Virus record (IMG/VR): IMGVR_UViG_3300038317_000166
Direction: 5' to 3' (one strand)
Source: an uncultured virus (IMG/VR IMGVR_UViG_3300038317_000166)
Taxonomy: Duplodnaviria; Heunggongvirae; Uroviricota; Caudoviricetes
DNA length: 20,000 nt
Under the pieces are notes generated by a model. It made no database searches and was not told the origin of the DNA. It saw only the letters and a program-made list of their open reading frames with translations. The position numbers and the translations under genes were made by a program. The stretch's first letter is position 1. Each line of letters begins with the position of its first letter. Shown here piece by piece: positions 9,151-20,000 of this stretch.

Positions 9151-11505
9151 ATGGCGGATATTTACGGCGTAACGCTACAGGCAGGTTCAAGCCCAACCGT
9201 CTATTACACCATTACCTATTCTAAGAGCCGACCGAACAATAGCCAGATGACCTATAACTTTACTATATCCGCAGCGCTGGGTTCGTCAGGTTCTTACATC
9301 CACAGCGGCTACGCCCTGCTCTGTACCATGACCGTAAACGGTTCATCTGCACAAGTGCGCATCAAGGCGGCGGACGGCGACGACTGGGATGGAACCACGC
9401 CTAGGCTCAGATATGTTTCGGTCACATGTGCTTCCACTACGGGAAACACCGCACAGGGCGTGCGCTTTCAGGTGGTGTCGGACGGACGGCTTCCTCTATC
9501 CTCCGGCGTAATTGATAACTCAAGCTACACCGTGTTAAGTTCAGCCCTTCTGACCACGGCCTGCGGAGCACCGACCTCCTGCTCGGTTAGTCCAATACTC
9601 GCGGAAGGAACCGTTACCCTTTCTTGGAGTGGAGCTTCCAGCGGCATAAACAATACGATTTCCAGTTATGAAATCCAGTACAGTGATTCCACTGACAATC
9701 TCACATGGGGAGCTTGGGCTGCACTGACAACGGTGACTACTACAGCTACAAGCGGCAGTGTATCAGTTGATCCGCCTTCGACGCGGGGCAATTACCGCAG
9801 GTTCCAGGTGCGGACGCGTGGTACGGCAGGAGCAAGTTATTACTCCGGCTGGAAAGTATCCACGAACTCCGTCCGCAGGAATACAGCACCGAGTCCGGCG
9901 ACGTCAGCCGTTGCTTCTCCCGCTGAATACAGCAATGAGACGATAACGCTGACTTGGAGCGGAGCCTCTGGCGGCACCAGTCCGGTAAAGGGCTACCAGA
10001 TTGCCAGCCGAACATCCTTGGACAACAGCACCTGGAGCACGTGGAATGTATTGGTCATTCTGACCCTGTCCGCCAGCGGTGGCAGCTACAACCCGGCTGT
10101 ATCAAGCACGCCGGGGACCTATACGCAATTCGGCATCTGGACAATCGACACCTTTGATGTCTATTCTGTTGAGAAAATCAGTAACAGCATCTACTGCGAC
10201 GTCACAGCTTGCGGAGCACCGACCGTCTGCTCGGTAAGCGCGGCATTAGCTGAAGGAAACGTCACCCTCTCGTGGAGCGGTGCAGCCAATGGCGCGGGCA
10301 ACGCCATCACGTCCTATGAAATACAGTACAGCGACTCTCCCGACAACAGCAGCTGGGGCGATTGGACGGCTCTGACCACGGTGAGCACCTCGGCGACAAA
10401 TGGCATCTTGAGTGTCAGCCCTCCGGCCACGAGGGGCAATTACCGCCGGTTTCGGATACGGACGCGCGGTGCCGCCGGTGAAAGCTTCTATTCCGACTGG
10501 ACGGTGTCCAGCAATACTGTTCGCAGAAATACACTGCCAACGCCGCCGGCATCTTTTACCGCCGCACCCGCGATTTATGAAGGTGGCGTCGTAACGCTTA
10601 CGTGGAGTGGAGCAGCTCCCGGAACCAGCGCCATCAAACAGTACGTCATCCAGCGTTCAACTTCTACGGATGGAACGAACTGGTCGGCATACGAAGCTCT
10701 TACAATAGTTGTTTCAAGCTCCACCTCTGGAACGTATACGGCGAACGCTTCCCAGATAGCCGGAACATATACTCGCTACCGTATCAGCGTAACCGATACC
10801 TTAGATGCGGTTTCCGCCTATGTAATCAGCGGGACGGTAAAGAAAAACAGCCCTCCGTCTGCTCCGGTAATCGTCTGCCCGCCGTCCGGCGGTTCCAGCT
10901 ACAATACCACTCCGCGTTTTATGATTACAACGGGTGTCGAACCGGACGGCCAGTCGCAGATTGTGGAAGTAAAAATCGATACGGGTGTTTGGATCAACAG
11001 TGTGGATAATCCCGAGCGATTTTCCACGAGCGGATACCTTGGGAATGGCGTTAAAACAGTCTATCAGGCGGAAACGCTGGCGGCAGGAAGTCATTCTATT
11101 ACCATCCGCTGCCTTGACAGCGATATCGAGTCGGCGAGTCCGGAGGTTGTCCGCACTTTTACAGTCCTGTCAACGCCATTCGAGACAATTACCGCGAACG
11201 AAACCCATGTGAAAGCGGTGCATATTCGGACACTCCGAACCGCTGTAAACATGGTACGAAGCTATTATGGCTTATCGCCCGCAACTTGGAGTGAGGACAT
11301 TTCCGCTGGAAAGACTACGGTCAAAAACTGGCCGTTCCACATCACGGAACTTCGAAAAGCCATCGAGCCTGTCATTACGGCGGTCAACGGTTTCGATTTC
11401 TCATCTTCTTTTGATATCCCACCCGTAACTTGGCTGCCCATCGGAGCAGGGCGTCCAAAAGCGGATGTGATGCAGCAGATTCAGAATTTGATTTTAACAC
11501 TTTAA
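9151..11505 (+). CDS. Tail-associated protein with four fibronectin type III-like repeats (putative adhesin)
   Basis: Ser/Thr-rich 784 aa; four VTL(S/T)WSGA...Y.I...D...W...Y.RF/Y units; RBS GGAGGTGA. Confidence 0.8.
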   Translation: MADIYGVTLQAGSSPTVYYTITYSKSRPNNSQMTYNFTISAALGSSGSYIHSGYALLCTMTVNGSSAQVRIKAADGDDWDGTTPRLRYVSVTCASTTGNTAQGVRFQVVSDGRLPLSSGVIDNSSYTVLSSALLTTACGAPTSCSVSPILAEGTVTLSWSGASSGINNTISSYEIQYSDSTDNLTWGAWAALTTVTTTATSGSVSVDPPSTRGNYRRFQVRTRGTAGASYYSGWKVSTNSVRRNTAPSPATSAVASPAEYSNETITLTWSGASGGTSPVKGYQIASRTSLDNSTWSTWNVLVILTLSASGGSYNPAVSSTPGTYTQFGIWTIDTFDVYSVEKISNSIYCDVTACGAPTVCSVSAALAEGNVTLSWSGAANGAGNAITSYEIQYSDSPDNSSWGDWTALTTVSTSATNGILSVSPPATRGNYRRFRIRTRGAAGESFYSDWTVSSNTVRRNTLPTPPASFTAAPAIYEGGVVTLTWSGAAPGTSAIKQYVIQRSTSTDGTNWSAYEALTIVVSSSTSGTYTANASQIAGTYTRYRISVTDTLDAVSAYVISGTVKKNSPPSAPVIVCPPSGGSSYNTTPRFMITTGVEPDGQSQIVEVKIDTGVWINSVDNPERFSTSGYLGNGVKTVYQAETLAAGSHSITIRCLDSDIESASPEVVRTFTVLSTPFETITANETHVKAVHIRTLRTAVNMVRSYYGLSPATWSEDISAGKTTVKNWPFHITELRKAIEPVITAVNGFDFSSSFDIPPVTWLPIGAGRPKADVMQQIQNLILTL
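9556..10851 (+). repeat. Intragenic tandem duplication of a 648-bp (216-aa) two-domain unit
   Basis: TACGAPTSCSVS at 9556 recurs as TACGAPTVCSVS at 10204; SYEIQYSDS.DN..WG.W.ALTTV and TRGNYRRF..RTRG.AG.S.YS.W.VS.N.VRRNT are shared. Confidence 0.9.
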
Positions 11506-14216: not shown

Positions 14217-14259
14217 TCTTCCAGTGAGTTGTGAGGACAGAGGTTCTCAGACTGGAGGA
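14217..14259 (+). promoter_or_regulatory. Predicted RNA hairpin occluding the RBS of the SHOCT-like gene
   Basis: TCTTCCAGT (14217-14225) pairs with ACTGGAGGA (14251-14259, contains GGAGG); inner stem TGAGGAC-AGAG-GTTCTCA (14232-14249). Confidence 0.5.
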
Positions 14260-14266
14260 AAAATAC

Positions 14267-14488
14267 ATGGCCAATATTACTGGCGTAATACCAGAAATCA
14301 ATTATGAAAAGAAACCTGTTCCGCAGGAGCAATTGCAGCGAGAAGTAGATTATGTAAGGGCACAGCGGATACTCTCTTTCATGCTCCAAAACGGACTTGT
14401 TTCCTTGTCGGAATTCAACAAGATAACCACATTAAACCGCAAATCTTTCTCACCGGCTCTGGCACAGATTATGCCCGAAAGCCGTTGA
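14267..14488 (+). CDS. Small SHOCT-like domain protein preceding the recombinases
   Basis: 73 aa from ATG 14267 with RBS GGAGG; EVDYVRAQRIL..ML..GLVS.SEFNKI...NR.SFSP pattern is typical of genes upstream of serine recombinase clusters. Confidence 0.75.
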   Translation: MANITGVIPEINYEKKPVPQEQLQREVDYVRAQRILSFMLQNGLVSLSEFNKITTLNRKSFSPALAQIMPESR

Positions 14489-14513
14489 TATTACTGAACT
14501 TCAGAGGTAATAT
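14485..14513 (+). promoter_or_regulatory. SigA-like promoter of the recombinase operon, overlapped by an imperfect palindrome
   Basis: TTGATA-N17-TAATAT, followed by RBS AAGGAGGTGA and the TTG start at 14539; ATATTAC...GTAATAT and CTGAA-C-TTCAG dyads lie over it. Confidence 0.55.
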
Positions 14514-14538
14514 GTCACACTGACAAGGAGGTGAAAAA

Positions 14539-16101
14539 TTGAAAAAGGTAACGAAAATCAATGAAAATACGTCTGATTTTACAGAGCTTCCCAAACTGCG
14601 TGTTGCGGCTTACTGCCGTGTGTCCACCGATAGTGATGATCAGCTGGTCAGTCTCGACACACAGATAAAGCACTACGAATCCTACATCAAATCAAATCCT
14701 GACTGGGATTTTGCCGGGCTTTATTATGACGAGGGCATCACCGGTACAAAAAAGGAAAAGCGGCCGGAGCTGCTTCGCATGATTGCCGACTGCGAGAACA
14801 AGAAAATTGACTTCATCGTAACAAAGTCCATTAGCCGGTTTGCAAGGAATACAACCGACTGTCTGGAACTGGTGAGGAAGCTGCTTGACCTCGGCATTTT
14901 CATTTACTTTGAGAAGGAAAATATAAACACCGGGTCAATGGAAAGTGAACTCATGCTGTCAATCCTGAGTGGACTGGCCGAAAATGAGTCGGTCTCTATT
15001 GCGGAAAACAGCAAATGGTCGGTAAAGCGTAGGTTTCAAAATGGGACCTTCAAGATTTCCTATCCGCCCTACGGCTACGATACTGCTGATGGAAAGCTGG
15101 TCATAAACGAATCACAGGCGGAAATAGTCCGTTTTATTTTCTTCGAAATTCTTTCCGGCAAGGGTACCGGCAAAATTGCAAATGAGCTGAACCGCCGCGA
15201 TGTGCCATCCAAGAAAGGCGGTCGCTGGACGGCGACAACCATTCGCGGGATGCTCGGTAATGAAAAATACACCGGCGATGCCATTTTTCAAAAAACCTAC
15301 ACCGATATGCACTTCAACCGCCACTACAATTACGGTGAAAAAGACCAGTTCCTGATTAAAAATCATCATGATGCGATTATCAGCCATGAGGATTTCGATG
15401 CCGCGCAGGCTATCATTGAACAGCACGGCAAAGAAAAAGGCGTGGAAAAATATCAGGATAAGTACCAAAACCGATATCCGTTTTCAGGCAAAATCATCTG
15501 CGGTCAGTGCGGTGGCAAATTCAAGCGTCGCATCCACTCCACCGGCAGGCATAATATCGCATGGTGCTGTACCAATCATATAGAGGACGCTAAGAAATGT
15601 TCCATGAAATACATCCCGGAGTCTGATTTTGAATATGCGTTTGTAACTATGGTGAATAAGCTCATATTCGGTCACCAAACCGTTTTAAGGCCCTTATTAA
15701 TGGGCCTTCGCGGTATCAACTCCGAAGACAGTGTGGCAAAGCTGCACACCCTCGATAAAAAGCTCGAAGAAAACGCGGAACAGCGAAAGGTGCTGGTTAC
15801 ACTACAGACCCGTGGCTACCTTGAGCCTGCCGTTTACAACAAGGGAAATAACGAACTTTTGCAAGAAGCCGAGCGCATACAGCGCCAGAAAGAATCCATA
15901 TCCCGCTTCATAAACAGCGACAATATTAACCTGCATGAGGTCAGCGAGCTCCTGCAATACGCCACAAAGGCGGCAATGCTGAAGGGCTTTGACAGAGAAC
16001 TGTTTACTCGCTTCGTGGAGCGGATTCTTGTATATTCACGAACAGAAATAGGGTTCGAATTAAAATGCGGCATTACGCTGAAAGAAAGGTTGGTGAGATA
16101 A
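14539..16101 (+). CDS. Large serine recombinase 1 (resolvase, recombinase, Zn-ribbon and coiled-coil domains)
   Basis: [15 protein letters not shown] with catalytic Ser, [34 protein letters not shown]...WCC...C zinc ribbon; TTG start. Confidence 0.95.
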   Translation: MKKVTKINENTSDFTELPKLRVAAYCRVSTDSDDQLVSLDTQIKHYESYIKSNPDWDFAGLYYDEGITGTKKEKRPELLRMIADCENKKIDFIVTKSISRFARNTTDCLELVRKLLDLGIFIYFEKENINTGSMESELMLSILSGLAENESVSIAENSKWSVKRRFQNGTFKISYPPYGYDTADGKLVINESQAEIVRFIFFEILSGKGTGKIANELNRRDVPSKKGGRWTATTIRGMLGNEKYTGDAIFQKTYTDMHFNRHYNYGEKDQFLIKNHHDAIISHEDFDAAQAIIEQHGKEKGVEKYQDKYQNRYPFSGKIICGQCGGKFKRRIHSTGRHNIAWCCTNHIEDAKKCSMKYIPESDFEYAFVTMVNKLIFGHQTVLRPLLMGLRGINSEDSVAKLHTLDKKLEENAEQRKVLVTLQTRGYLEPAVYNKGNNELLQEAERIQRQKESISRFINSDNINLHEVSELLQYATKAAMLKGFDRELFTRFVERILVYSRTEIGFELKCGITLKERLVR

Positions 16102-16533
16102 ATGGGCCACACTCCATACGGTTACCGGATTATAAACGGAAAAGCCGTGATTGATGAACAATCTGCCGAGCGGATAAAAATCCTGTTTCAGTCCTATCTG
16201 ACCGGCGATTCTTTGGCAACGGCAGCAAAAAAAGCTGAAATTATAGCATTCCACGCAGGCATCAGCAGGATGCTCCAGAATAAGCGCTATCTCGGTGACG
16301 AATATTACCCGGCGATTGTCGACCCGGACACATTTACGGCTGCTGAAGCGGAACGTATCAGACGGGCAGAAAAACTCGGCCGAGTCCGAGAACTAAAAGC
16401 AAAAAAAGAGGTCGTCTATCCCACTGCCTTCCGCATCAGCGAAGACAGAGAGCGGTTTGACGACCCATTCCAGCAGGCGGAATATTCCTACAGCCTGATA
16501 GAAACGGAGGTGGATATAGATGGAGGTCAGTAA
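16102..16533 (+). CDS. Recombinase-domain-only protein (no catalytic domain)
   Basis: Begins at PYGY.I.NG...IDE..A..I..LF..YL.G, then ML.NKRYLG..YPAIVD..TF; no YxRVS motif and no Zn ribbon; starts immediately after the upstream stop. Confidence 0.85.
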
Positions 16534-18088
16534 GAATGTAACCGTCATTCCGGCGAGGAAGCATACCCGAAAGAGCAAGGACGAAGAAAAACCGAAGCTC
16601 CGCGTTGCTGCCTACTGCCGCGTTTCCACAGACAGCGACGAACAGGCGACCAGTTATGACGCACAAATTGAACACTACACCGCTTACATTAACGGCCACC
16701 CAGACTGGGAATTGGCGGGAATCTATGCGGACGACGGCATCTCCGGCACCAATACAAAAAAGCGCGAGGAATTCAACCGCATGATTGACGAGTGCATGGC
16801 CGGCAATATCGACATGGTCATCACGAAGTCCATCAGCCGGTTTGCCCGAAATACGCTGGACTGCTTGAAATACATCCGTCAGCTCAAGGACAAGAACATT
16901 CCTGTTTTCTTTGAAAAAGAAAATATCAACTCTATGGATTCCAAGGGCGAGGTCATGCTTACCATCATGGCGTCGCTTGCCCAGCAGGAAAGCCAATCCT
17001 TAAGTCAGAACGTTAAGCTGGGCCTGCAATACCGATACCAGCAGGGCGAAATCCAGATAAATTGTGCTCGGTTCCTCGGTTATACAAAGGATGAGAATAA
17101 GCATCTTGTAATAGTGCCGGAAGAAGCTGAAATTGTGAAACGCATTTACCGGGAATACCTTGAAGGTGCCAGTATGCTTAAAATCGCTCGCGGTCTGGAA
17201 GCGGACGGTATTCTGAACGGAGCCGGTAAGGAAAAATGGCATACCAGCAACGTGAACCAGATTTTGCGCAATGAAAAATACATCGGTGATGCTCTACTGC
17301 AGAAAACCTATACCGTTGACTTCCTTACGAAAAAGCGGGTTAAAAATAACGGCCTTGTTCCACAATACTATGTTGAAAACAGCCATGAAGCCATCATCCC
17401 GCGTGAAATTTTCATGCAGGTGCAGGAGGAGCTTATCCGCCGCCGAATCGTCCACACCAGCCCGAATGGAAAAAACAGAACCTTCAGCAGCAATCACTGC
17501 TTCGCTCAGATGATTATCTGCGGTAACTGCGGTGAGGTGTTCAGACGGGTTCACTGGAACAACCGTGGCAAGAAGTCCGTCGTCTGGCGGTGCGTCAGCC
17601 GCTTGGAAAACACCGGTCTGTTCTGCGATGCTCGAACGGTGCCGGAAAGCCAGATTGAGCAAGTGCTGGTTACCGCTATCAACCAAACTTTGTGCGACAA
17701 GGACAACTTCCTCGTCACCCTTCAGAACAATATCGAGACGGTCATAATCCATGAAAACGACCAGACGCTGGACGCTATTGACAAGCGGCTTGAAGAACTT
17801 CAAACCGAGCTTTTGAAGCTGGCCAGTTCCAAGGCAGATTACGAAGATGTCGCTGACGAGATTTACCGCCTGCGCGAGGAAAAGCAGAAAGTGCAGCTCG
17901 ATAACGTCGGCCGGGATGAACTGAAAAAACGCATCACCGATATGGGCGACTTCCTGCGAAAACAGCCCACCGCCATTACGGAATACGACGAGCCGCTTGT
18001 CCGGCGACTGATTGAAAAAGTCACCGTCTACGAGGATAAATTCACTGTGGAATTTAAGTCGGGTGTTACGGTGGATGTGGATGAATAA
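16520..18088 (+). CDS. Large serine recombinase 2
   Basis: [15 protein letters not shown] with catalytic Ser, [42 protein letters not shown]...WRC...C zinc ribbon; RBS GGAGGTG. Confidence 0.95.
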
Positions 18089-18100
18089 ACTAAAAACGAA

Positions 18101-18145
18101 CGAAGCACTCTACGGAATTATAACGTAGGGTGCCTCGCTTTATTA
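18101..18145. terminator. Probable bidirectional terminator between convergent genes
   Basis: CGAAGCACTCTACG (18101-18114) / CGTAGGGTGCCTCG (18124-18137), 9-nt loop, A-rich on the left and T-rich on the right. Confidence 0.7.
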
Positions 18146-19108
18146 TTATCTTAGTTCCAAACGCTCGAAAATTCGGTAGCAAATGTATGTCAAATAAGGA
18201 GACGGCACTTTCTTCTGGCCAAAATCCCAGTCCTTTAATTTCAAATACACCGATTCAGGCGTAAAAAAGCCTTCTTTATCTTGTTTACTTTTTATATGCG
18301 CAACCATCTCAAGGAAGCGCGGGTCAATCCGTACAAACTCATATTTGCTCAGCACTCCGGCTACGCTGACAATATCATACCAGCATGACGGTGCCTTCAG
18401 CTTGCGGAAGTCGGTACCCATATAGAACATATAAGGATGCTGACCAAGGCTGTTTTCCCACAGGCTCAGCAGCGTTTTCGCGGAGGAAACCGCAATCTGT
18501 GAATCTTTATACTCCGGTATATGCGACAGCAGATCGGCCATAATCAGTGTCGCATACGGGCAGCAATCGTCCTTTTTACCGGGTCCTCTGAATTTGCCCA
18601 GTTCTGGGGAAACAGCGCAGGGGAAGCCGTTATCCCTACATAGAGATACCAAATAGTCAACGCCGGGCTTGATATATTCACGATAATCCATACCCGCCTT
18701 TAGCAGAGCGAGCAAAAGCTGCGGGGCGTCGCACAGGCACCAGCTGAACACATCCTCGCCCGTACCGCCGAAATGCTTCGGGACATTGGTCATAGACTGA
18801 TAGATGCCGTGCTCGTCCCGGTGCTTAAGAATTTCATCGACGGCCGCTTTTATTTCGGGAACTTCCATGCCGAATCCGATATCCAGCAGAAACAGCAGCT
18901 TGTGTATCGGCAGCTCGGGGTTTTTATGGTTTGTTACCAGCGTACCGTGAAATGCCGAAACGTCCTCAAGGTACTTTTTGATACGGCTATCCGCCAGCGC
19001 AGCGTTTCTGAGCTCAACGAGAGCGTCCTCTGAGTCGTTGCATAAATTATGATGAATCGCGTATTTAAGCCAGCCTTCGCTGCGCTCCAAGAGCTTTTGA
19101 TATTCCAT
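18146..19108 (-). CDS. Hypothetical protein, possibly alpha/alpha-barrel (prenyltransferase/squalene cyclase repeat-like)
   Basis: 320-aa ORF with RBS AGGTGA; repeated helix + (Q/R)DxxG(F/I) turns (HRDEHGIY, CRDNGFP, KQDKEGFF). The fold call is tentative. Confidence 0.6.
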   Translation of the reverse strand: MEYQKLLERSEGWLKYAIHHNLCNDSEDALVELRNAALADSRIKKYLEDVSAFHGTLVTNHKNPELPIHKLLFLLDIGFGMEVPEIKAAVDEILKHRDEHGIYQSMTNVPKHFGGTGEDVFSWCLCDAPQLLLALLKAGMDYREYIKPGVDYLVSLCRDNGFPCAVSPELGKFRGPGKKDDCCPYATLIMADLLSHIPEYKDSQIAVSSAKTLLSLWENSLGQHPYMFYMGTDFRKLKAPSCWYDIVSVAGVLSKYEFVRIDPRFLEMVAHIKSKQDKEGFFTPESVYLKLKDWDFGQKKVPSPYLTYICYRIFERLELR

Positions 19109-19140
19109 ACTGCAATCACCTACTTTTCACCAAACTCAAG

Positions 19141-19623
19141 TTATTCCATGGCCAGTCCTTTATCAATAGCTTCCTGAATAATTTTATGGCAGCAAACGCC
19201 AAGCGGATTATTCTCTTTGCAATTGGAGTTTTTCATCGCTCCGGTAATGGCGTTCACTTCCTTAACCGTTTTTGCTCCATGCTTTACAACTGCTTCTATT
19301 ATCTGTTCTTCAGTTACTTTACTGCAATAGCATGCATACTTAGGATTTGCATCTTTTTTGAACCAAATGGGAACACTGACCTGGTCTTTTAAGAATGTCG
19401 TTCCATTGTCCAAGTTATAGTAAACCACTTCGCAATCTTCATTCATGCAGATCTTGTAGCAATCTCCTGCTATATCTTTGCGATGGCTTTCTGCCACCAG
19501 ATGTTCAACGGTTACCTTGCCTACAGATATTCCCTCACTATTGCAGACGGGGCACTTATTTGCCTTGGCCATATCTGTCACTTTTGTGTTGCATCCACAA
19601 CAGCAGTCATTATTTAAATTCAT
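19141..19623 (-). CDS. CopZ-type Zn-binding / BFD-like [2Fe-2S] cluster protein (Csac_0668-like)
   Basis: CPVC...C...C.VVYY then YACYCSKVTEEQI..AV...GA and CKENNPLGVCC, as in the Archaeoglobus CopZ N-terminal domain; ATG 19623 lies 7 nt after GGAGGT. Confidence 0.8.
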   Translation of the reverse strand: MNLNNDCCCGCNTKVTDMAKANKCPVCNSEGISVGKVTVEHLVAESHRKDIAGDCYKICMNEDCEVVYYNLDNGTTFLKDQVSVPIWFKKDANPKYACYCSKVTEEQIIEAVVKHGAKTVKEVNAITGAMKNSNCKENNPLGVCCHKIIQEAIDKGLAME

Positions 19624-19658
19624 ATCCAAAACCTCCGTTTACTGAGATTGATTTGCGT

Positions 19659-19774
19659 ATCTAATCTGACCACACAACCTTGACATTTTCAAAAAACATC
19701 TAAACCGACCACTCACGAACCCATGTTATCTAAATCGACCACTCGTCAAACACCGACATCTAAATCGCTCTCTC
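19659..19774. repeat. Four 17-bp imperfect direct repeats, consensus ATCTAAAYCGACCACTC
   Basis: 19659 ATCTAATCTGACCACAC; 19698 ATCTAAACCGACCACTC; 19728 ATCTAAATCGACCACTC; 19758 ATCTAAATCGCTCTCTC; start-to-start spacing 39, 30, 30. Confidence 0.85.
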
Positions 19775-19860
19775 GCACTCGAAAATGCCCGCTTTGACTT
19801 GTTTCCTCGAAGCGATAAATTTGCGATTTTAGCACGTCGGATTTTTACACCCAAACTCCG

Positions 19861-19886
19861 AAAAGCCCAGTGCTACTGAACTTTTT
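19861..19886 (-). terminator. Hairpin just downstream of the rlmD stop codon, possible weak terminator
   Basis: Minus strand AAAAGTTCAGT-AGC-ACTGGGCTTTT; pairs fully only on this strand (two G-U pairs). Confidence 0.45.
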
Positions 19887-19892
19887 ATGCAC

Positions 19893-20000
19893 TTACTTAT
19901 CAACCCTTGTTATCAATACAACTGTCTCAACGTGGCTTGTTCTCGGGAACATATCAACAGGGGTAATACATTCGGTTTTATATCCTAATTTTGCAAAAAA
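19893..20000 (-). CDS. rlmD: 23S rRNA (uracil-1939-C5)-methyltransferase RlmD/RumA, 3' end only
   Basis: Minus-strand translation FFAKLGYKTECITPVDMFPRTSHVETVVLITRVDK*; VDMFP.T.HVE is the TrmA/RlmD C-terminal signature. Not in the ORF track. Confidence 0.9.
   Translation of the reverse strand, partial: FFAKLGYKTECITPVDMFPRTSHVETVVLITRVDK
19902..19964. other. Predicted prophage-host attachment junction inside rlmD, crossover near the His-Val-Glu codons
   Basis: Imperfect inverted repeat ACCCTTGTT (19903-19911) / AACAGGGGT (19956-19964) centred on 19933/19934; the rumA 3' end is a known serine-integrase target. Confidence 0.6.

Follow-up and report, generated by a model that had tools for sequence, protein, structure and literature searches.

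Four direct repeats close to the end of a prophage inserted at the 3' end of host rlmD are copies of a half-site of its own attachment site. Together with one inverted copy of the host half-site, they form an array that is a real and strongly conserved cis feature of the element. The arrays suggest extra DNA binding sites used by these serine integrases, a class thought not to need such sites. Based on sequence comparison, we regard it as fairly probable that the repeats are accessory binding sites for the recombinases of the element itself, acting in cis in integration or excision. About two thirds of the weight that we give to this reading lies on directionality or the selection of synapsis, and the rest on plain loading or enhancement.

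The window, that is, the whole stretch of 20,000 nucleotides analyzed here, covers the tail, lysis and recombination region of the prophage. A SHOCT gene, Rec1, Rec2 and Rec3 (14231-18088) are followed by two cargo genes on the − strand, approximately 300 bp of noncoding DNA and the 3' end of rlmD, also on the − strand. The conserved recombination module is opened by the SHOCT-domain protein of 85 aa (14231-14488, + strand). Rec1 (14539-16101, +) and Rec3 (16520-18088, +) are large serine recombinases, each with Resolvase, Recombinase and zinc-ribbon domains above the Pfam cut-offs; the catalytic Ser and the four zinc-ribbon Cys are invariant among 53 aligned relatives of Rec1 and 54 of Rec3, and both enzymes of the window are intact. 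Rec2 (16102-16533, +; 143 aa) consists of a recombinase domain only, without a catalytic or zinc-ribbon domain. The preliminary description of this DNA had proposed a noncatalytic partner of this length, and three comparisons agree with it: Rec2 aligned to the recombinase (DNA-binding) domain of both Rec1 and Rec3 with a probability of 97.5-97.6, 66 of 68 Rec2 relatives matched Pfam Recombinase at E ≤ 0.01, and the predicted Rec2 model (pLDDT 88) had the LI integrase-DNA structure as its best structural match (E 4e-4). Prediction of a Rec2-Rec3 complex gave a score of 0.00, which speaks neither for nor against such a complex. In relatives, the two full recombinases, Rec2 and the SHOCT gene are kept as one block. 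The cargo genes encode a 320-aa protein with no family match (18146-19108, −) and, adjoining the array, a Csac_0668-family 2Fe-2S protein resembling the CopZ N terminus (19141-19629, −), the start of which lies 26-32 bp from the last repeat copy. The cargo slot is sharply bounded (18077-19658), from the end of rec3 to the fourth repeat. As additional observations, a conserved promoter-like site, TTGATA-17-TAATAT, lies between the SHOCT gene and rec1 (14487-14515), two phages carry a beta-like motif just upstream of rec1 (L226:3890 and L230:8695) that is a possible autoregulation site, and a tail-region protein of 784 aa (9151-11505) contains internal repeats of 648 bp and 330 bp.

The rlmD gene encodes the 23S rRNA m5U1939 methyltransferase, and its 3' end in the window (19893-20000, −) takes its last codons from the element, ending in DMFPRTSHVETVVLITRVDK before the stop codon. 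Its best matches were RlmD/rumA (E 3e-5 over 35 aa). Just past the rebuilt stop codon, a hairpin with an 11-bp stem and a weak z of −1.9 (19861-19885, −) is probably the rlmD terminator; a terminator scan did not flag it. Sequence comparison places the P' arm of attL at 19909-19933 (−), where it also encodes the new RlmD C terminus, and arm profiles place the B arm within host rlmD at 19935-19958 (−). The ends of two genomic elements, G008 and G002, are identical to window positions 19600-19935 and diverge beyond, and their left neighbor arm mirrors the right arm about a central CA. We therefore place the crossover dinucleotide, CA on the − strand, at 19933-19934, the center of symmetry of the P.P' junction. 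Independent metagenome contigs stop or run loose at 19934 (X4, X11), and the far end of the G008 element diverges after the CA.

Half-site profiles were built from arms only, out of 116 distinct junctions. The profile that we call alpha comprises 24 P-arm sites and 38 right-arm sites over positions +6 to +25 and reads roughly GA-n2-G-n7-TTGATGTC; a chance junction in L203 was included in the P set, where it accounts for 1 of the 24 profile sites and 1 of the 31 arms. The beta profile, from 46 rlmD arms, reads roughly GTnGAtATGTTcCC-n4-AC, corresponding to the codons D-M-F-P-x-T. Right arms keep the outer motif at +18 to +25, as P does, and the motif of the B arm differs from alpha, matching it at best with a 3-bp shift. 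The att sites are thus composed of two half-site types, alpha in P, P' and often B', and beta in the host B arm. Many host rlmD ends are without a clean alpha B' arm, and true host B' arms vary.

The four repeats start at 19659, 19698, 19728 and 19758, with the spacing of 39, 30 and 30 bp noted earlier, and differ from the third unit by 4, 1, 0 and 3 mismatches, whereas no other position in the window has fewer than 5. None of 300 dinucleotide-preserving shuffles of 19500-20000 contained four nonoverlapping 17-mers within 4 mismatches of each other. The 17-bp consensus given in the preliminary description closely fits the two middle units and fits the outer ones (4 and 3 mismatches) less well. 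The repeats are copies of the outer 20 bp of the alpha-type attP half-site, all on the − strand: copy 1 at 19755-19774 (+160 to +179 from the crossover), copy 2 at 19725-19744 (+190 to +209), copy 3 at 19695-19714 (+220 to +239) and copy 4 at 19656-19675 (+259 to +278), the outer edge of which is the edge of the conserved end. The distance of approximately 160-278 bp inside the crossover agrees with that first proposed, and AACCTTGACAT is present at 19676-19686, as reported. The likeness of the repeats to the phage-side arm had been argued from an ungapped alignment of 19718-19744 with 19902-19928. The identities of 17/27 overall and 12/13 at the 5' end were reproduced, but 17/27 is reached once elsewhere in the window (11004, − strand); this alignment is therefore weak evidence, and the att-arm likeness rests on the arms-only profiles.

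These profiles are the independent test, since an earlier repeat profile had been trained on the ends that it counts. With arms-only profiles, 97-99% of 185 repeats exceeded the 99th percentile of the scores obtained elsewhere in the same flanks, and column shuffles reached the observed mean in 0, 1 and 0 of 1000 cases for the P-arm, right-arm and pooled profiles, respectively. Matches occur at fixed offsets and on one strand only. The best fit to the repeats was that of the P-arm profile (mean 8.1 versus 3.2 bits), so that the resemblance to an att arm stands, but the far (P) arm is matched at least as well as the adjacent arm with which the repeats had been compared. In the window, alpha copy 1 is the second-best match of the pooled profile, behind the att arm itself. 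The beta profile does not recognize the alpha repeats. Among 39,962 positions, its sole site beyond the B arm is 19793-19812 on the opposite (+) strand, with 16.5 bits against 6.3 for the next; according to this rlmD-arms-only profile, the site is an inverted copy of the host rlmD half-site, including the D-M-F-P-x-T codons. The preliminary description included neither this inverted beta copy nor the beta array at the opposite end (see below). Per-position conservation of beta copies and rlmD arms is correlated (rho 0.86), a circular result that we do not count because the copies were picked with the same profile.

A search with Rec3 yielded 79 genome loci and 80 viral loci, of which 89, including the window, form clade A (Rec3 identity of at least 76%). 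The junction is reached in 58 of these, giving 52 nonredundant ends, which were recognized by the junction pattern; a prior scan for the rlmD motif had missed ends abutting another element. The other 31 loci reached no recognizable junction, mostly because of short flanks, and were all left out of the 52; among the four of them with at least 4 kb of flank, L047 has the array, and L052, L106 and L109 have neither junction nor repeat. Two to four alpha copies plus the inverted beta copy are present at fixed distances in 51 of the 52 ends. Four alpha copies were found in 35 ends, three in 13, two in 3 and none in 1; in this lone exception, L073, the arm contains a group II intron, beyond which three repeats follow. 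In 49 of 51 ends, the first alpha copy is located between +158 and +164; of 134 repeat steps, 86 measure 29-31 bp and 47 measure 37-41 bp. The 52 ends are related by descent and do not represent 52 independent events. In a quick tree, repeat variants track Rec3 loosely: L021 has a Rec3 near that of the window and repeats like those of L045. The median pairwise identity of the ends is 0.57. Conservation is 0.93 in alpha and 0.94 in beta core columns, compared to 0.58 in spacers and 0.39 in cargo, and falls directly past the fourth copy.

As a control, rlmD ends were picked by pattern from 212 genome searches regardless of recombinase (59 loci, 49 with full flank). The array was absent from 45 of the 49, comprising 39 with neither feature and 6 with a beta match only; of the 4 with an array, two look the same as ends in the main set, and one is the G001 end. 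Presence in the ends of relatives and predominant absence from control rlmD ends indicate that the array belongs to the element, not to rlmD. A blastn search of the window end against 50,697 phage records gave one partial match.

The preliminary description had offered two other origins for the repeats, operators of cargo genes and scars of repeated capture, and neither fares well against these ends. An operator or structured RNA leader would agree with the position of the array just upstream of the CopZ-like gene. However, the 50 array-adjacent cargo genes fall into 48 unrelated families that share the same array at the same fixed position, which answers in the affirmative whether the motif persists regardless of cargo, and folding of the array strand was no stronger than that of shuffled sequences (z −1.5). 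Contigs from two metagenomes have other cargo joined at 19659 (X6, X9). We conclude that a role as cargo operator or leader can scarcely be correct. Cargo independence refutes it except in the form of one element-encoded regulator serving all cargo, which is considered below. It is very improbable, too, that the copies are scars of repeated capture or insertion with no present function. Elements do accrete at the rlmD site, and repeats within one element are slightly more alike (12.8/17) than those of unlike rank between elements (11.6), as scars might be. By contrast, genuine accretion junctions retain the crossover core and are separated by kilobases, whereas the copies have no core and lie 30-40 bp apart; an array of cassette junctions, in which each repeat with its core bounds a gene unit, was rejected for the same reason. 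In addition, the near-constant spacing and position of the copies, the far better preservation of core letters than of spacers, and the inverted beta copy, which cannot come from direct tandem insertion, all argue against scars.

A third alternative accepts the arm likeness of the copies: the recombinases would bind them for regulation and not in the synapse, with the array serving as an integrase sink, a block to adjacent re-insertion or a control of transcription into the cargo slot. The first cargo gene reads away from the array in 43 of 50 cases, many starting less than 60 bp from the last copy, as would agree with a regulatory sink or a cargo promoter role. On the other hand, no sigma-70-like promoter is conserved in the array (3 of 51 ends compared to 7.7 expected; a promoter scan of the window array likewise found nothing conserved), tandem insertions beside array-bearing ends are common, and a sink would not need fixed crossover distances, a fixed orientation or sorting of arm types between the two ends. 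We consider this alternative unlikely, while granting it an appreciable chance.

The sorting of arm types becomes apparent when the opposite end is considered. There, direct beta copies, two or three in number, precede 26 of 31 P-type arms, with fewer at contig ends or where copies are worn; the five P-type arms that lack beta copies comprise four built in another style and one fortuitous match. For the far end of the window's element, we relied on the G008 element, the P' end of which is identical to that of the window; this element is approximately 55.7 kb long and has three beta copies at its far end. G004, G005 and G009 also carry beta copies at the far end, on one contig. The beta copies lie 33-35, 43-44, 72-74, 86-87, 93-96, 117-118 and 127-131 bp from the native position. 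These offsets fall close to integral numbers of helical turns (R 0.80 for a period of 10.5 bp, p ~0.004), in a test with post hoc classes and period and nonindependent offsets. In summary, two to four alpha copies and a single inverted beta copy lie at the P' end, and two or three beta copies in direct orientation lie at the P end. In terms of att sites, attP is flanked by both arrays (~430 bp in all), attB by none, attL by the alpha side and attR by the beta side. A beta-array P arm is joined to an alpha-array P' arm at 14 junctions. G005 and G009 contain both junctions of one element on one contig, indicating that B.P' was used as a target. P.P' junctions inside chromosomal contigs would represent attL used as a target, and those on viral contigs may be attP.

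This layout recurs outside clade A. In a second clade (Rec3 69-73%), it is the P end that carries the recombinase module, together with two beta copies (−58 and −97), and the rlmD ends combine the inverted beta copy with, in most cases, a pair of alpha-like repeats spaced about 31 bp. Read by eye, phage record PV036457.1 contains three beta copies, the core, the inverted beta copy and a diverged 30-bp array, and PP197246.1, from a culture supernatant, contains a diverged version of the layout in mid-genome. In phi1605, beta copies are present on both sides of the junction and the profiles detected no alpha repeats, and phage record PV036439.1 (63% Rec3) has no recognizable array at its junction.

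Alternatively, the copies may have arisen by duplication of att arms and may now serve another factor in the manner of iterons or of a parS-like site; this factor could be the SHOCT protein, a protein of phage replication or partition, or a nucleoid protein of the host. Regularly spaced direct repeats of 17-20 bp have the appearance of iterons. Moreover, repeat positions 10-17 have conserved letters of their own (G10, C13) that are absent from the P' arm. Against this possibility, there are two motifs, each copying a different arm, at opposite ends; units of only 3.7 and 7.9 kb keep the copies; and in the second clade, with the recombinase module at the other end, the arrays are still located at the att ends. 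We view binding by another factor as distinctly unlikely.

If, instead, the copies are accessory sites for the element's own recombinases, they would provide what the cores appear to lack. Since the P' arm restores rlmD and is similar to B', attB and attL would have nearly the same 50-bp core, as would attP and attR, and therefore the usual P-versus-B spacing code alone could not tell integration from excision. It is the flank that differs, by the distribution of the two arrays among the four sites. One recombinase probably reads alpha and the other beta, in analogy to CcrB and CcrA of SCCmec. Further recombinase subunits on the copies would shape the synapse; they could not cut, because no crossover core lies beside the copies, and could bridge to core-bound subunits via their coiled coils. 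In this way, attP would be wrapped into a complex that captures attB, which has no arrays, and attL x attR would form a complex of another kind, with Rec2 or the SHOCT protein as the likely switch. Several observations count against arm sites, including the published view that serine integrases need no auxiliary DNA (PMC3783163), the loose tracking of Rec3 by the repeat variants, and the results for phi1605 and PV036439.1 given above. The preliminary description had proposed a spacing of roughly three helical turns, but with 10.5 bp per turn a step of 30 bp amounts to 2.86 turns, and the last step in the window measures 39 bp. The alpha array is therefore not in strict helical phase, and among the ends its spacing (30, then 39-41 bp) is out of phase as well. 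In addition, the copy number varies from two to four. The attB and attL cores may also differ more than the model assumes, given that host B' is often not clean alpha. With a shift of 3 bp, the beta arm and alpha have ATGTC-like letters in common; beta may therefore be a displaced site for one protein and not a second specificity.

In phage lambda, attP has accessory arm sites on both sides, attB has none, and attL and attR have one set each. The arrays, judged by their layout, appear to be divided among the att sites in the same manner. The arm sites of lambda differ from its core sites and are recognized by a domain of their own, whereas the accessory sites of the present element copy the half-sites themselves, and serine enzymes take the place of a tyrosine integrase with an arm-binding domain. 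A more far-reaching proposal is that a widespread class of Bacillota prophages employs lambda-like, architecture-controlled large serine recombination, in which two integrases of different half-site specificity act on two arrays of noncleavable half-sites, the flanking arrays and a recombinase-domain-only protein choose between integration and excision at equivalent core sites, and the same ends license recombinase-free units in trans. We put this forward tentatively, as somewhat short of probable.

Classical serine integrases (LI/A118, phiC31, Bxb1, SPbeta) share with the present enzymes the domain order, half-sites of approximately 25 bp with an outer motif, and a central dinucleotide, as far as the available sections of the sources describe them (PMC3783163, PMC11722253), and the Rec2 model folds like the LI recombinase domain. 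The same sections describe a single integrase, sites of 40-50 bp and no auxiliary DNA, and PMC3783163 describes serine integrases as needing no accessory proteins either. In the part of that source concerned with LI, the attP has a 9-bp outer motif at 16-24, compared to +18 to +25 here, that is shifted by 5 bp in attB; for SPbeta, the corresponding shift between B and P is given as 4 bp (PMC11722253, in the section available). Both classical attB halves carry the outer motif with such a 4-5-bp shift relative to attP. In the present system, by contrast, B' is often P-like, there are two integrases per element instead of one, and 150-280 bp of patterned flank lie on each side.

CcrA of SCCmec is said to read the odd host half-site, a finding credited to Misiura in 2013, and work by Wang in 2012 reportedly addressed the flanking-DNA needs of CcrAB, which may bear on the arrays. 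According to the available portion of PMC13739063, SCCmec uses two recombinases and three like half-sites, with a fourth overlapping the rlmH frame. The present element resembles this CcrA/CcrB system in having two large serine recombinases, in targeting the 3' end of an rRNA methyltransferase gene and in tandem insertion (PMC13739063, same portion). Three like half-sites and one host-coding half-site are found here too, with host B' only partly alpha. Unlike in SCCmec, the target is rlmD and not rlmH, and a tailed prophage serves as the carrier. The scores of Rec1 and Rec3 are 140-145 bits, compared to a CcrB cut-off of 900, and the ccrA/ccrB/ccrC NCBIfam models give 62-144 bits compared to cut-offs of 700-900. 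A third, recombinase-domain-only protein and half-site arrays go unmentioned for SCCmec in the portion of PMC13739063 available.

Streptococcal ICE triplets, in the sections available of PMC4701971, similarly have three tandem recombinase-related genes and cargo between these genes and the att site. They target mutT, traG or hsdM; rumA/rlmD is also the target of single serine integrases in streptococcal ICEs, which have one integrase and an att site inside the gene (PMC4701971). The same sections report only terminal repeats of 2-21 bp for both kinds of ICE, and the catalogues of triplets and rumA integrases in those of PMC4701971 and PMC5704250 say nothing of internal arrays. The recombinase modules of phi1605 and phi-SsuFJNP3_rum were compared, and phi1605 shares the long-short-long gene layout. 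IS607 serine transposases assemble a synaptic complex on several direct repeats inside the element end, as described in the part available of PMC6188088; these are 9-bp motifs located 20-60 bp from the end with 10-11-bp spacing, an unrelated DNA-binding domain and no site-specific target. None of the entries returned by full-text literature searches describes half-site arrays at the att sites of large serine recombinases; att-site alignments in the supplements of streptococcal or SCC papers may contain repeats of this kind. In our view, the element works like an SCCmec-type two-recombinase system to which a lambda-like layout of arms has been added, and it belongs to neither family.

Serine integrases are prized for one-way recombination on short sites without auxiliary DNA, and a natural family that appears to need several hundred bp of patterned flank would be an exception to the short-site rule. 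The arrays provide a testable answer to how direction is chosen in two-recombinase systems with near-equivalent cores, which is also the problem posed by SCCmec. They lead to the prediction that screens of single integrases on 50-bp sites will score these enzymes as dead. They also give precise, sequence-defined ends to a large group of rlmD-integrated prophages and islands, the relatives of which include phages with resistance cargo, and mark the edge of the cargo slot.

Several smaller units and insertions were observed at the same sites. A 3.67-kb unit (L058:1215-4885) keeps both end arrays and has no recombinase match, making it a candidate cassette moved in trans. A 7.9-kb unit in L021 (G009:C34:105044-112902) has both ends, Rec2 and Rec3 and no Rec1. 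In a 3.3-kb unit of L045 (G010:C20:22984-26318), the far arm is beta-type (copies at −25 and −62) in place of a P arm, and is perhaps a beta copy used as a half-site. Small units stacked at the same rlmD site beside triplet elements (L026, L035, L041 and L055, with units of 1.5-2.7 kb, L229:7228-8950, and L232) encode a serine recombinase of approximately 300 aa without the zinc-ribbon part and have a different left arm; some keep the alpha array. Group II introns start right past +24 of the right att arm in L073 (9883-11759) and L158 (12585-14459), as well as in L122, L165, L183, L213 and L217; Rfam confirmed those of L073 and L158, and none reached the cut-off in L213. An intron lineage thus seems to home into the right att arm. 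Finally, a beta-like array of another style (L175:18509-18631) lies beside a truncated P arm in G003.
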